Source of the DNA: a phage
Sequence record: OZ346158.1
Strand: one strand, 5' to 3'
Length of the DNA stretch: 64,000 bases
The stretch's first letter is position 1, and the number at the start of each line of letters is the position of its first letter. Positions 4,578-60,849 of this stretch are shown here, piece after piece. Position numbers and translations under genes: made by a program. The notes beneath the pieces are model-generated. The model had not been told where the DNA came from, did no database searches, and worked only from the letters and a program-made list of their open reading frames with translations.

Positions 4578-5162
4578 ATGAAAATACTTCAAGAGTTTAA
4601 ACTTTACCAACCGGGATCTGGCGAATACCACGCCAACAAGGAAACCAAAGAGCTGACCCCTCAAGAGGTTGAGGACTACACCGCATACACTGGGTATTTT
4701 TTACGTAATGATGATGGCGATTGGTATGTGCAGTCAAGAACATTACGACAAGAAAATCCGGGTTGTATCTTCCTACTTGTTGACGAAAAGGGAATTCTTA
4801 AGACATCTACAGAAGAACCTGATGCCTTATGGCCTGCTCCAGGTCTTCGTGTGGTTATCGCCAAAAAAGAAGAGGTACCAGAAAACATTATGCTTCACCA
4901 CGACGCTTTGCGTTTAGTTGGTGATGAATTTGTCACAGACAATGAATTCTTTGTTCAACAGGCAGAGGGTGTCATAGAGACAGAACTTGCTTGGGCTACT
5001 GCTAGAATTGGTGCCTATCAAGACATGATTGACCTTGAATATGATCTTACTGATGACCAGAAACGTAACATCAGAGATTTGAAAATGTACAGGGTAAAAC
5101 TTCTTGAAATAGATACATCTAAAGCCCCTGACATTTTCTTCCCGGAGCGACCTACCCTCTAA
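4578..5162 (+). CDS. hypothetical protein, possible tail-fibre assembly/chaperone (by position only)
   Basis: 194-aa ORF immediately downstream of tail-fibre gene, GGAGGA RBS; function inferred only from position. Confidence 0.45.
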   Translation: MKILQEFKLYQPGSGEYHANKETKELTPQEVEDYTAYTGYFLRNDDGDWYVQSRTLRQENPGCIFLLVDEKGILKTSTEEPDALWPAPGLRVVIAKKEEVPENIMLHHDALRLVGDEFVTDNEFFVQQAEGVIETELAWATARIGAYQDMIDLEYDLTDDQKRNIRDLKMYRVKLLEIDTSKAPDIFFPERPTL

Positions 5163-5173
5163 GAGGAGGTGTT

Positions 5174-5488
5174 GTGGAGTTGGATTTGGCGGCATTGTAC
5201 GGTATCTGCATGGGTACCGTTGTCCCGATCTGTGTATGGGCTTTCAACCAGTGGCACACCAAATGGAAAGGCATTTCCAAGAGGTTGGATGAACTGGAGA
5301 AAGACCTCATCTTAGTGAAAAACAGTATGGTTACAAAAGATAAACTTGATTCCGTTATCGAGACCCGGTTAAGTAAGCTAGAGGCCGATATTAACGACCT
5401 TAAGCAGGATGTCAGGACAGATGTCTCCGGTATCCGAGCTGATGTACAAAAGATTTTGCACATGCTCGTAGAGCATAGTAAAAGGTAA
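5174..5488 (+). CDS. membrane-anchored coiled-coil protein
   Basis: 104 aa, GTG start after GAGGAGG RBS; N-terminal hydrophobic helix (ALYGICMGTVVPICVWAF) then heptad-like charged region; followed by terminator. Confidence 0.5.
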   Translation: MELDLAALYGICMGTVVPICVWAFNQWHTKWKGISKRLDELEKDLILVKNSMVTKDKLDSVIETRLSKLEADINDLKQDVRTDVSGIRADVQKILHMLVEHSKR

Positions 5489-5497
5489 ACAAAGGTT

Positions 5498-5530
5498 AGA
5501 ACGGAAAGGACTCCGTTCTTGCATTTTGTT
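5498..5530 (+). terminator. rho-independent terminator
   Basis: 8-bp stem AGAACGGA/TCCGTTCT with 6-nt loop followed by TGCATTTTGTT. Confidence 0.6.
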
Positions 5531-5574
5531 CCCTAAAGTGTTAAAATAGTCCTAAGGAATTTTCTCAGGAGAAC

Positions 5575-6621
5575 GTGATGACTAAACCAGTTATCCCTCT
5601 TGATATTTGGGCCAATCAGGATGTTGTGCTTGAAAATACGGGAGAGTTGAATAAGTCTCAACCAAAAAAAGAAGAGAGATTGAAAGGTTGGGATATGACA
5701 CAAAGAGTGGCATGTGAAGTTGTTAACTTTGAACTTCACATGCTTTCTGCGTGGTTAAAGCATTTAACAGAAGATGTTGTCCCGGGATGGGATAATAGAT
5801 TCTTAAGGGTCACTAATAATCTAGCAGACGTTCCAGACAAAGCTGCTGCACGTCAAGTTCTCAATGTATACTCGCCTGAAGAAATGGACGATCTATATAT
5901 TGACAGGTCTGGAGACATAATGACTCAGACTCAAACTTTAGGTCTTCAAAGAATCGAGTTTGCATCTGCGTCAACAGACAATGCGGCAATATATACCACC
6001 ATAACTCCAGACAAGACGACGATGGATTTCTGGATTATGGACAACATCGGTGGTGCTGACGGCACAGACCTTGATGATCCTTCTCACCAAATAGACGGGT
6101 TCCGTTGGAGATTTCAACCTTCTGGTGGGCAGCCTGTGTTTTCGGCTATGAAGCTCAATGCTATAACTGCCAACCGTGCAAGACTGGCTATCCAAGGGAA
6201 TCTTGAATGCAACGATGCAAAAAGTTCCTCTGCAAATGCCAATGCGGTCACGATACCAAGAGCCACTATTAATGGACAACAATCCTGCGGAAGCGCTCAA
6301 ATAGGTGGAAGAGTTGATTGTAACGATGAAACCGTCAGGGGCCAATACGCAACAGTTGGTGGAAGAAACGTGGTCCGCAGGGTAAATGGTAACGGCGCAG
6401 ACAGTAGTGGTAACCTTACTATTCCTATGCCTAGCAGAGGGGTTGATGATGTAAGGATAGCAAACCGTTTCAAAACCACCTACAGAGAGTCAAGAGTCTA
6501 CCCTGGGCATGTGATGTGCTCTGGTAACTACGCTTATAAACACCCTTATCAAGGTGACTACTGGACAGGTGCTATCCAAAAACTTGTAAATGGTCAATGG
6601 ATCACTATATCTTATGCTTAA
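5575..6621 (+). CDS. tail fibre protein, paralogue B
   Basis: 348 aa; SGDIMTQTQTLGL motif; homologous to 3523..4563, C-terminal ~25 aa nearly identical; AGGAGAA RBS. Confidence 0.7.
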   Translation: MMTKPVIPLDIWANQDVVLENTGELNKSQPKKEERLKGWDMTQRVACEVVNFELHMLSAWLKHLTEDVVPGWDNRFLRVTNNLADVPDKAAARQVLNVYSPEEMDDLYIDRSGDIMTQTQTLGLQRIEFASASTDNAAIYTTITPDKTTMDFWIMDNIGGADGTDLDDPSHQIDGFRWRFQPSGGQPVFSAMKLNAITANRARLAIQGNLECNDAKSSSANANAVTIPRATINGQQSCGSAQIGGRVDCNDETVRGQYATVGGRNVVRRVNGNGADSSGNLTIPMPSRGVDDVRIANRFKTTYRESRVYPGHVMCSGNYAYKHPYQGDYWTGAIQKLVNGQWITISYA

Positions 6622-59358: not shown

Positions 59359-59778
59359 ATGAACATTAAATCTAATAATCCGGCATATAGCTTTGATAAC
59401 GCTTTTTGTCACGGTCCGGCGGCGAAAGGATTCGAAATCGATGGTAAACTAGTTATTGTCAATGTTGACGGGGAAGAGGTTGCAGTATATCCGGTGGCAG
59501 ACGTTAAAAGCCGTCTACAATGCCGCATCGATGTTACCGCCTACCAGCTTGATCCGGTCCGGGTAGTTGCCCTGGTCCTGGAAGAAGAAATTAAAGCAAT
59601 GCACCACAGCAACAAGTTTATTGGTGACGCTCAAGATAATATGAAGGTGTGCCGCCATAAAGTTAATGAAGTGCTTAAAGAATATGGCTTTAAAGATCTG
59701 ATGATCAAACGTGAGGAAAAATTCCGCTACCGTAACGACCTGGCAAATCGGATTTTTGAAATATACGAATCATTATAA
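59359..59778 (+). CDS. hypothetical protein
   Basis: 139 aa, CTAAGAGGTAAAAACACCATG RBS; followed by terminator. Confidence 0.55.
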   Translation: MNIKSNNPAYSFDNAFCHGPAAKGFEIDGKLVIVNVDGEEVAVYPVADVKSRLQCRIDVTAYQLDPVRVVALVLEEEIKAMHHSNKFIGDAQDNMKVCRHKVNEVLKEYGFKDLMIKREEKFRYRNDLANRIFEIYESL

Positions 59779-59796
59779 TTTCTTAACTGAATTATC

Positions 59797-59826
59797 AAGG
59801 GGCTTAAAGGCCCCTTTCTTTTTGTC
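59797..59826 (+). terminator. rho-independent terminator ending the + strand small-gene array
   Basis: AGGGGC-TTAAAG-GCCCCT followed by TTCTTTTTG. Confidence 0.75.
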
Positions 59827-60591
59827 TGCTCTTCTCCTACCATAAACGGCCCTACCTGGCAAGTGGAATAATTGACTAGCCATCAATCCCACATACTGTA
59901 CAAATATACATGGAAAATAACTATTGCATAATTTTTCATTGTGTGGTAGCAAGTCCATTTTTACCCGTTTTCTCTCCCAAAAGTGCACGTAATGCCGCTA
60001 TTGCACAAATTTTAACCTGATGCACATCTCCAATATCTTGTCAACAACTAAAAATCTTTATAAGTCATACACTTACACAGCATCGAAAGCGTGTTCTACG
60101 CGAAAAATCGAGTATAACTATAGCCGCCAGATCTCAGAATTCACGTACGCACGCCATTCTATAGCCTGCAAAGTATTTATTCCAACCACAGAATAACGGA
60201 ATAGTCAATACCTGCATAAAATAATTATTCGTGTAAACTGCATAACATAAATCAGCTCAGGTGTCAACATTTTTCGTAAACAGTCCGAAATTATCACGAT
60301 GAGTTATCATAAACAGAGAAATCTTTAGTCGTCTAATGTTTACTGTACATTACTATACTGACTGGAATCATTAGATGACTAATACAATAGAACAAATTAA
60401 TAATGTAATTATTTTACCTGTAACAATAAGGCAACTATGCAAACGAATGGCATGGCGCGACGGAGTCGCGACATAATATAAAAGCAGTAACCATCACCCC
60501 CGTGATAGTTTGTCTGCAAACTATTAATCAGATCATAGTTGCCTTGTATTTAGTTAATCATGACATAACAAGCAAGGCAACTATAGATATA
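59827..60591. other. AT-rich non-coding region with multiple hairpins/inverted repeats
   Basis: No credible ORF; hairpins ATAGTTTG-TCTG-CAAACTAT (60506), ATAGTTGCCTTG...CAAGGCAACTAT (60538/60580, third copy of AAGGCAACTAT at 60424), TAGTCGTCTAATG...CATTAGATGACTA (60326/60376). Confidence 0.5.
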
Positions 60592-60849
60592 CTAAACCAT
60601 AGCTTCAAAAGGAGTCATGAACGAATAAACGGCATCATCATCTGCTTCAGGGAATGCTCCCAAAGACTTCATATCTGAACCCTTGACAAATACAAGGTTT
60701 TGATCAAAGGCTTCTTGGGGGTCAATCCGATACATATTTCGTAGAATATCGCTTACCTCCTCATCAAGAGGTGAGTATGCTGTGCACGTTTTTCCGATCA
60801 AGCTTTGAGAATCAGGGTATCCACCTGAAGTTTTAAAATAAACAATCAT
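60592..60849 (-). CDS. hypothetical protein
   Basis: 85-aa ORF, last gene of - strand block. Confidence 0.45.
   Translation of the reverse strand: MIVYFKTSGGYPDSQSLIGKTCTAYSPLDEEVSDILRNMYRIDPQEAFDQNLVFVKGSDMKSLGAFPEADDDAVYSFMTPFEAMV

Follow-up and report, generated by a model that had tools for sequence, protein, structure and literature searches.

What does a phage chromosome keep in about 770 bp of gene-free DNA at the point where two blocks of genes converge? The question is raised by positions 59827-60591 of a 64,000-nucleotide stretch, hereafter the window, of the phage record OZ346158.1. A preliminary description of the window saw a structured, AT-rich non-coding region here and proposed a non-coding RNA, a replication origin or a packaging signal. 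Comparison with related phages makes it somewhat probable, in our judgement, that the region is sub-terminal non-coding DNA of a vequintavirus chromosome, carrying transcription terminators placed back to back, and not a gene. Two things were missed in the preliminary description, namely the terminator anatomy of the hairpins and the fact that the region is truncated.

Identity and non-coding nature of the locus

The window comes from an rV5-like coliphage (Vequintavirus). Positions 59700-60700 were matched by 123 phage records, and the 816 bp at 59780-60595 by 120 vequintavirus records at a coverage of at least 80% and an identity of 89-98%. The region was single-copy in every genome matched. 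Divergent relatives were searched for using blastn with 11-nt words and only Vequintavirus was matched, always with at least 89% identity. Two copies of the region were found in IMG/VR. A metagenome scan with the protein of open reading frame (ORF) 164 yielded eight relatives, all close.

In rV5, the counterpart is 105825-106616 (~91% identity), located between ORF164 and ORF163 and directly 3' of ORF164 and its terminator t164. In Figure 2 of the rV5 paper (Kropinski et al., 2013, Virol J 10:76), this place is a box labelled 'non-coding', without ORFs and with no function offered. A bidirectional terminator was expected between ORF163 and ORF164 by the same authors and was not found. The gene-free interval of the relatives extends over about 2.5-2.6 kb between two gene blocks, versus ~770 bp at the same locus in the window, where the box is this short because of a junction at 60595. 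The region is the left 77% of one arm of the box on the rV5 map.

The basic layout given in the preliminary description was recovered. The + strand terminator placed near 59797 was found by a terminator scan (59797-59816 with its T tract) and is rV5 t164. An ORF that ends the - strand block at 60592 is present (60592-60849). DNA free of ORFs of at least 60 aa is nowhere in the window as long as at 59989-60591, with 603 nt; the runner-up has 348 nt. The AT-richest 200 nt of the window are at 60217-60416 (27.5% GC versus a mean of 43.7%, sd 3.8). Two transcription blocks do converge here, but the right edge of the region is the junction 60595/60596 and not a natural gene boundary.

The region was aligned with those of 21 relatives. 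In flanking genes, diversity at codon positions 1/2/3 was 0.04/0.015/0.195 and 0.026/0.017/0.138, a 5- to 10-fold excess at position 3. In the six small ORFs of the region, diversity was flat across the three phases, and no PHROG or Pfam family was matched by the small ORFs of the region; this also holds for the ORFs 59910-60020 and 60020-60196, which lack codon periodicity. Small-protein genes were ruled out by these two analyses. The region is not protein-coding. Known RNA families were ruled out with Rfam 15, which gave no match in the region at the gathering score on the window, only three hits, at chance level, at E up to 5 on the region, and none at E up to 1 when the complete box of a relative was searched. 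Scanning for tRNA and tmRNA genes gave none.

Chromosome ends of the relatives

Terminal redundancies of 458 bp were reported for the vequintaviruses EdH4 and HdK5 (Korf et al., 2019). In the records of both phages, the first 459 nt are identical to the last 459 nt. This segment corresponds to 5141-5599 of the RudolfGeigy sequence L001, in the middle of the gene-free box, and is carried by 120/120 relatives. Its near boundary is 245 nt past the equivalent of 60595. It is annotated as a repeat_region at 1-459 in Gotham. The records of bov10K2, bov11CS3, bov25_3, YN3, EdH4, HdK5 and Gotham start at one boundary, those of Pr121LW and EcoIv14a_Aya start at the other, and that of ECP2303 ends with the segment. 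Direct terminal repeats are thus found in the relatives and not at 59827-60591, as the segment is outside the region.

Directly outside one boundary of the terminal repeat (L001 ~5085-5141 and equivalents), RTGTCA is repeated three to five times at intervals of ~11 nt, the array ending exactly at the step from ...TGTCA to GACAAG (12/12 relatives in which the boundary motif was found). The spacer around this array is hypervariable (diversity up to 0.44). As a terminase recognition site, the array is a more plausible candidate than any sequence in the window, and neither the array nor the terminal repeat was present when the whole window was searched. Of the three functions first proposed, a packaging signal comes nearest: the termini of the relatives are in the same box, ~245 bp past the right edge of the region, but both the termini and the array are outside the region and the window.

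Since the terminal repeat is in the middle of the box in the relatives, the convergence of transcription is the meeting place of the chromosome ends on the circular map. The region is the inner part of one sub-terminal arm. Published descriptions of the packaging mode are inconsistent for this genus. rV5 was described as circularly permuted (Kropinski et al., 2013, Virol J 10:76). So were the bov phages, whose revised records start exactly at the terminal-repeat boundary.

Predicted terminators and compound palindrome

Folding was analysed in 120-nt windows compared with shuffles, on both strands. The region is structured in its right third, from ~60320, and the left two-thirds fold like shuffles, which leaves the word 'structured' of the preliminary description valid for the right third. 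The z-scores for window starts 59800-60280 ranged from +0.6 to -1.35 on the + strand and from -1.6 to +1.9 on the - strand, and extreme values were reached only at 60480-60599 (-6.0 on the + strand and -4.8 on the - strand). The strong inverted repeats that had been announced are there (two perfect ones of at least 10 nt, with 0.1 expected), as are three copies of AAGGCAACTAT in alternating orientation at 60428 (+), 60535 (-) and 60574 (+). There are no others in the 64 kb; 0.04 copies were expected by chance and 0/100 shuffles reached three.

In intact relatives, AAGGCAACTAT is found in a four-copy arrangement inside a compound palindrome of ~150 nt. The inverted repeats of the window are the left two-thirds of this 150-bp palindrome (Table 1). 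In the relatives, it is composed of an 18-bp A/U-rich outer stem, a side hairpin and an imperfect inner stem of ~31 bp, and is bracketed by 20-bp direct repeats, as seen in RudolfGeigy. The two arms of the outer stem, GACATAATATAAAAGCAG and CTGCTTTTATATTATGTC, are 100% complementary over the 18 bp in RudolfGeigy. Copies 2 and 3 of AAGGCAACTAT pair perfectly over 12 bp around a 26-nt loop. Copy 4, with which copy 3 pairs in the + strand terminator hairpin, is deleted in the window. For the 216-nt segment of the relatives, the folding energies are -81.5 kcal/mol (+ strand, z -9.2) and -85 kcal/mol (- strand, z -8.2). In rV5 and phita32, a 33-nt insertion, TAAACTCAGGCATAGCCTTCGTCTCGAGGATGT, is present in the apical loop between copies 2 and 3. 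The palindrome was also considered as a multi-copy mobile element, which was ruled out by its single copy per genome.

Table 1 Features of the region and its borders in the window (positions are those of the window)
Feature	Position	Strand	Remarks
Last gene of the + strand block	59359-59778	+	139 aa
Intrinsic terminator T1 of the + strand early block	59797-59826	+	8 pairs, 5 GC, then TCTTTTT
AT-rich spacer	59827-60189	no strand	C > G and A > T on the + strand; moderately conserved
Conserved block	60190-60260	no strand	Direct repeats CTGCATAA[A/C]ATAA (60212-60224, 60238-60250) and palindrome AATAATTATT
Weak promoter-like site	60239-60267	-	TTGACA, 17 nt, TG-extended TATGCA
Conserved hairpin/inverted repeat	60325-60382	+	14-nt arms TTAGTCGTCTAATG / CATTAGATGACTAA, interior 28-30 nt
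AAGGCAACTAT copy 1	60428-60438	+	Found by repeat search
Left copy of the 20-nt direct repeat ATGCAAACGAATGGCATGGC	60437-60456	+	Right copy absent from the window
Short GC hairpin	60456-60470	no strand	CGCGAC, GGA, GTCGCG; invariant in 14 distinct sequences
Left arm of the outer stem, A-rich, GACATAATATAAAAGCAG	60470-60487	+	Partner CTGCTTTTATATTATGTC past the junction, absent from the window
Terminator-like hairpin	60479-60510	-	AACTATCAC GGGG GTGATGGTT, then U tract
Inner stem of the palindrome	60516-60584	no strand	AAGGCAACTAT copy 2 (60535-60545, -) and copy 3 (60574-60584, +)
Last gene of the - strand block	60592-60849	-	Two C-terminal codons (VG) lost compared with the MaxTheCat homologue; stop codon from the left of the junction
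Junction unique to the window	60595-60596	no strand	2-nt AA microhomology; ~6.4 kb skipped

T1 is t164 in Table S4 of the rV5 paper and carries a terminator annotation in the records of Murica, EdH4, HdK5 and Gotham. The - strand terminator hairpin (60510-60489, AACTATCACGGGGGTGATGGTT) has nine pairs, three of them GC, and is followed by ACTGCTTTTA, giving the stem-loop and U tract of an intrinsic terminator. The stem at 60479-60510 contains a pair that is G-U on the - strand but mismatched (C-A) on the + strand, and its pairs are invariant. The + strand terminator of the relatives consists of the hairpin of AAGGCAACTAT copies 3 and 4 followed by UUUUAUAUU. It is annotated as a terminator in Murica, where terminators are annotated at both ends of the region. 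Intact relatives have the anatomy of a bidirectional terminator, with the 18-bp A/U outer stem; the window does not, having kept the - strand terminator and lost the 3' arm and the U tract of the + strand one. In the right arm of the relatives, a strong sigma70-like promoter (TTGACA, 16 nt, TAAAAT, TG before) faces the - strand terminator across the terminal repeat.

The stems are conserved in related genomes, as the preliminary description had proposed to check. Among 14 distinct sequences, 61 of the 69 predicted pairs are main-stem pairs and essentially invariant, the substitutions being found in bulges and loops. When all pairs were counted, 7/138 paired and 7/49 unpaired positions varied (p = 0.054). 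When the weak apical mini-stem was excluded, the values were 2/130 and 7/49 (p = 0.002). Only 1/69 pairs was altered on both sides, and avoidance of stems fits a DNA palindrome equally well.

The box of intact relatives has the following order: T1, an AT-rich spacer of ~600 bp, the conserved hairpin, the 150-bp palindrome bracketed by 20-bp direct repeats, a hypervariable spacer of ~220 bp ending in the RTGTCA array, the 459-bp terminal repeat and a right arm of 1 kb. Of these, the window retains T1, the AT-rich spacer, the conserved hairpin and the left two-thirds of the palindrome. The structured part would be two intrinsic terminators placed back to back, whose A-rich and U-rich flanks pair with each other. 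From this anatomy we infer that the hairpins terminate transcription, and a reason for it. T1 would stop the early + strand block, the + strand terminator would catch whatever escapes T1, and the - strand terminator would stop transcripts arriving across the terminal repeat. Transcription would thereby be prevented from crossing the chromosome end or the concatemer junction and from running antisense into neighbouring genes.

Several points weigh against this interpretation. A compound hairpin of 150 nt is far bigger than an ordinary terminator, and its loops and flanks, for which a plain terminator has no need, are conserved nearly as well as its stems. Termination does not explain ~600 bp of conserved AT-rich DNA or the hairpin at 60325-60382, which has no U tract. 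The whole palindrome is missing from FV3 (NC_019517). Compared with SYGMH1, FV3 has a deletion of 339 bp exactly between copies of ATGCAAACGAATG(G/T)CATGGC. The palindrome is therefore not essential, and what it does must be dispensable or redundant. Fixed termini conflict with the reports of circular permutation. The terminal repeat is absent from the window, the local context of which is unlike that of the relatives. Finally, no transcriptome or origin mapping for any vequintavirus was found in the literature.

Alternative functions of the region

The palindrome and the conserved hairpin could be cis-acting DNA for concatemer cutting and regeneration of the terminal repeat, for example by fold-back priming of the duplication, a mechanism proposed for phage T7. 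The region would then be an accessory packaging element. The palindrome ends ~219 bp from the terminal-repeat boundary in the relatives, its stems are under purifying selection with a signal that favours neither strand, and the 816-bp region is kept at a coverage of at least 80% in 120/120 relatives. Chung, Nardone and Hinkle (1990) reportedly found a hairpin end near the T7 concatemer junction, which would be a precedent. But FV3, which was isolated as a phage, has none of the palindrome, the window is without its right arm, and terminase would most obviously recognize the RTGTCA array at the boundary, outside the region. We regard such a role as unlikely.

The AT-rich core (~60190-60420) could alternatively be a replication origin, with an unwinding element, repeats as initiator sites and terminators as a shield. 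It contains the 200 nt of lowest GC content in the window, it is flanked by conserved blocks that contain an inverted repeat and two-copy direct repeats, and no relative has lost it. Diversity in the conserved block 60190-60260 was 0.058, with a core at ~0.03. Large non-coding regions bearing repeats act as origins elsewhere, for example in PLE, the satellite of ICP1. PLE resembles our case in its large gene-free region with repeats and in its related replisome (T7-like polymerase and helicase-primase), and the polymerase of rV5 has one of its closest homologues in ICP1 (Kropinski et al., 2013, Virol J 10:76). The PLE region, however, is located between divergent operons, has multi-copy iterons bound by a known initiator and shows a coverage peak (Barth et al., 2019, NAR 48:249); divergent operons and multi-copy iterons were not found at the region of the window.

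Beyond AT-richness, the origin proposed in the preliminary description received no positive sign. DnaA-like boxes (two observed, 2.0 expected), integration host factor (IHF) sites (0-1 observed, 0.05-1.1 expected) and GATC (at or below expectation) were not enriched in the region. All direct repeats there have two copies only, fewer than the three or more of an iteron-type array. Replication genes are not adjacent. Transcription converges and does not diverge, and the turn in GC skew coincides with the change of gene orientation, as the rV5 authors concluded. The phased A/T tracts that had been announced were not confirmed either: AA/TT power at periods of 10-11.25 nt was no higher than in dinucleotide shuffles, 69% of which reached the value of the whole region, and periodicity was marginal only at 59827-60150 (2.7%, uncorrected). 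An origin here seems to us a possibility of low probability. A 25-nt motif common to the conserved block and the terminal repeat was set aside, since ~0.35 such matches were estimated by chance.

Both ideas could also be joined. The hairpin, the palindrome and the AT-rich core would then be the cis-acting machinery of a myovirus chromosome end, in which fold-back of the palindrome beside the concatemer junction primes or guides duplication of the 459-bp repeat and the core serves as a terminal origin. This combination is speculative and, in our opinion, improbable.

Next comes the possibility of one or several small non-coding RNAs, either a + strand RNA including the hairpin 60325-60382 or a - strand RNA starting from the site 60267-60239. 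The hairpin folds better on the + strand (z -3.8, versus -1.7 on the - strand), where its single imperfect pair is a G-U. Its stem is invariant and its interior variable (0/28 and 7/29 variable positions, respectively; Fisher p = 0.010). The - strand promoter-like site has the same score in 22/22 aligned genomes, with conserved -35 and -10 hexamers and a variable spacer (60250-60261). It is a lead only, because its -10 hexamer is without the final T. Non-coding RNA is known in an rV5-like phage, phiTE, which encodes pseudo-ToxI (Blower et al., 2012, PLoS Genet 8:e1003023), and the two have in common that they are non-coding loci of phages from one subfamily. The phiTE locus, on the other hand, has tRNA genes as neighbours and precedes the terminase gene, in a setting where every gene is on the same strand, and its tandem 36-nt repeats are absent from the region of the window, with which it has no sequence similarity. 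Homology to it was ruled out, the two loci not being syntenic.

The other data also speak against a non-coding RNA, the remaining candidate of the preliminary description. Rfam gave no match even at E up to 5, no folding excess was detected over 59800-60320 on either strand, the hairpin 60325-60382 has no U tract and compensatory changes in pairs are almost absent. The count of promoter-like sites in the region is not above that in shuffles, and none scores like the strong sigma70 promoters of the adjacent early block. We therefore hold a small RNA to be more doubtful than a concatemer-processing site or an origin. Just 3' of the hairpin, at 60383-60398, the window has lost 4 nt and carries clustered substitutions, changes seen in 0/21 relatives.

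The region is under constraint. Four flanking genes had a diversity of 0.164 (confidence interval, CI, 0.133-0.197) at their 4-fold degenerate sites, and the diversity of the region overall was 0.082 (CI 0.072-0.093), the two intervals not overlapping. It was 0.101 (CI 0.084-0.118) at 59820-60189, 0.034 at 60321-60385 and 0.050 at 60421-60591. Codon positions 1+2 of the flanking genes had 0.023, a non-synonymous level that two blocks of the region approach. The AT-rich core (59827-60420) evolves at about half the neutral rate and is thus probably not junk. GC skew in the AT-rich spacer ranges from -0.16 to -0.30. That the region is mostly functionless, a decayed remnant with a palindromic insertion that looks conserved because the genus is young, is very improbable: a palindrome flanked by 20-bp direct repeats and gone in FV3 does resemble an insertion or a deletion-prone element, the adjoining spacer is hypervariable and genomes that are all at least 89% identical give limited power for detecting constraint, but diversity is half that of 4-fold sites with separate CIs, two blocks are near the non-synonymous level, substitutions avoid the stems and the element is single-copy in every genome.

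Junction at 60595/60596

All of the more than 116 relatives match the window up to 60595, and the match is taken up again only after ~6.4 kb, as in RudolfGeigy, where the left part stops at 92623 and the right part begins at 99076. Three parts of the gene-free box are skipped (variable spacer, terminal repeat of 459 bp and right arm), together with 17 small genes, and this DNA was not present elsewhere in the window. With queries of a 30-mer or of 200-300 nt, the junction was absent from phages, IMG/VR, GTDB genomes, Escherichia coli genomes and plasmids.

The junction must reflect a deletion in the phage itself or have been made by assembly. An artefact of assembly, or an incomplete source sequence, was judged the likelier of the two, by a clear but uncalculated preference, because a phage with a fixed terminal repeat should not survive the loss of this repeat. 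The AA microhomology at the junction leaves room for real illegitimate recombination, as do the intact frame of the neighbouring gene and the presence of the - strand terminator ~85 nt past its stop codon. The best-scoring promoter-like site (60608-60580, - strand; TTGAAG, 17 nt, TATAGT) was made by the junction and is absent in the relatives.

One part of the box that is absent from the window deserves separate mention. In RudolfGeigy (MZ501102), L001 6200-6520 is a gene-free block of ~320 nt with a diversity of 0.00-0.04 in 20 genomes, compared with 0.164 at 4-fold sites. Neither codon periodicity nor an Rfam match was found there, and folding is not in excess (z -0.9 and -0.2). The right edge bears, on the - strand (L001 6482-6455), a strong sigma70-like promoter with 11/12 consensus positions and TG before, then a small hairpin and a U tract. 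This almost invariant block might be a new RNA or a site that acts as DNA.

Neighbouring genes and other genera

To the left of the region are small early genes on the + strand, a block in which strong sigma70-type promoters are numerous. In the right flank, the - strand genes start at 60592. Phage A7_1 (unclassified Vequintavirinae) and Phapecoctavirus, a genus from another subfamily, have the 139-aa protein of the last + strand gene at 87-92% identity. Downstream of the gene for this protein, phAPEC8 has 1.5 kb of A+C-rich DNA that contains no genes and shows no significant similarity. More generally, the DNA 3' of the ORF164 homologues of Phapecoctavirus and Septuagintavirus was gene-free and had no significant similarity. 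Several phapecoctavirus records start or end close to the 139-aa gene, which suggests that termini are located there too. Short matches around a ATTCTCATTC-like motif were seen between the gene-free DNA of phAPEC8 and the vequintavirus terminal repeat (E = 0.03).

Comparison with known systems

Phages of the T7 type, with short direct terminal repeats, offer a close likeness: the relatives have an exact 459-bp repeat, gene-free flanks with repeats, a palindrome and a promoter whose transcripts would cross the junction. Unlike T7, the phages studied here are myoviruses with host-type sigma70-like promoters and without T7-like promoters for a phage-specific RNA polymerase, and their neighbouring genes are transcribed toward the ends and not away from them.

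The bidirectional terminators t026/t027 of rV5 share with the palindrome an A tract, a hairpin and a U tract at a place where transcription directions meet. They are a single hairpin of ~25 nt, whereas the palindrome is nested over ~150 nt, with three inner hairpins and the 18-bp A/U outer stem. It is also 1.0 kb and 1.7 kb from the nearest genes, and its right arm is missing in the window.

The region is a genuine feature, non-coding and conserved, and already bore the label 'non-coding' on the rV5 map of 2013. It is of a known kind, the terminator-bearing sub-terminal DNA of a phage with direct terminal repeats.

Significance for rV5-like phages

Phages of the rV5 type are common in collections for phage therapy and biocontrol, their 2.5-kb gene-free box has been unexplained since 2013, and their genomes are still often called circularly permuted. 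Tying the box to fixed 459-bp repeats gives these genomes a natural start point. Knowledge of the terminal repeat flags assemblies without ends, that of the window included, and the proposed reading of the box marks DNA to retain when rV5-like phages are engineered. The reach beyond this group would be small unless the palindrome or the AT-rich core acts in end replication. If these elements were indeed end-replication machinery, rV5-like phages would be a tractable model for large phages with short terminal repeats.

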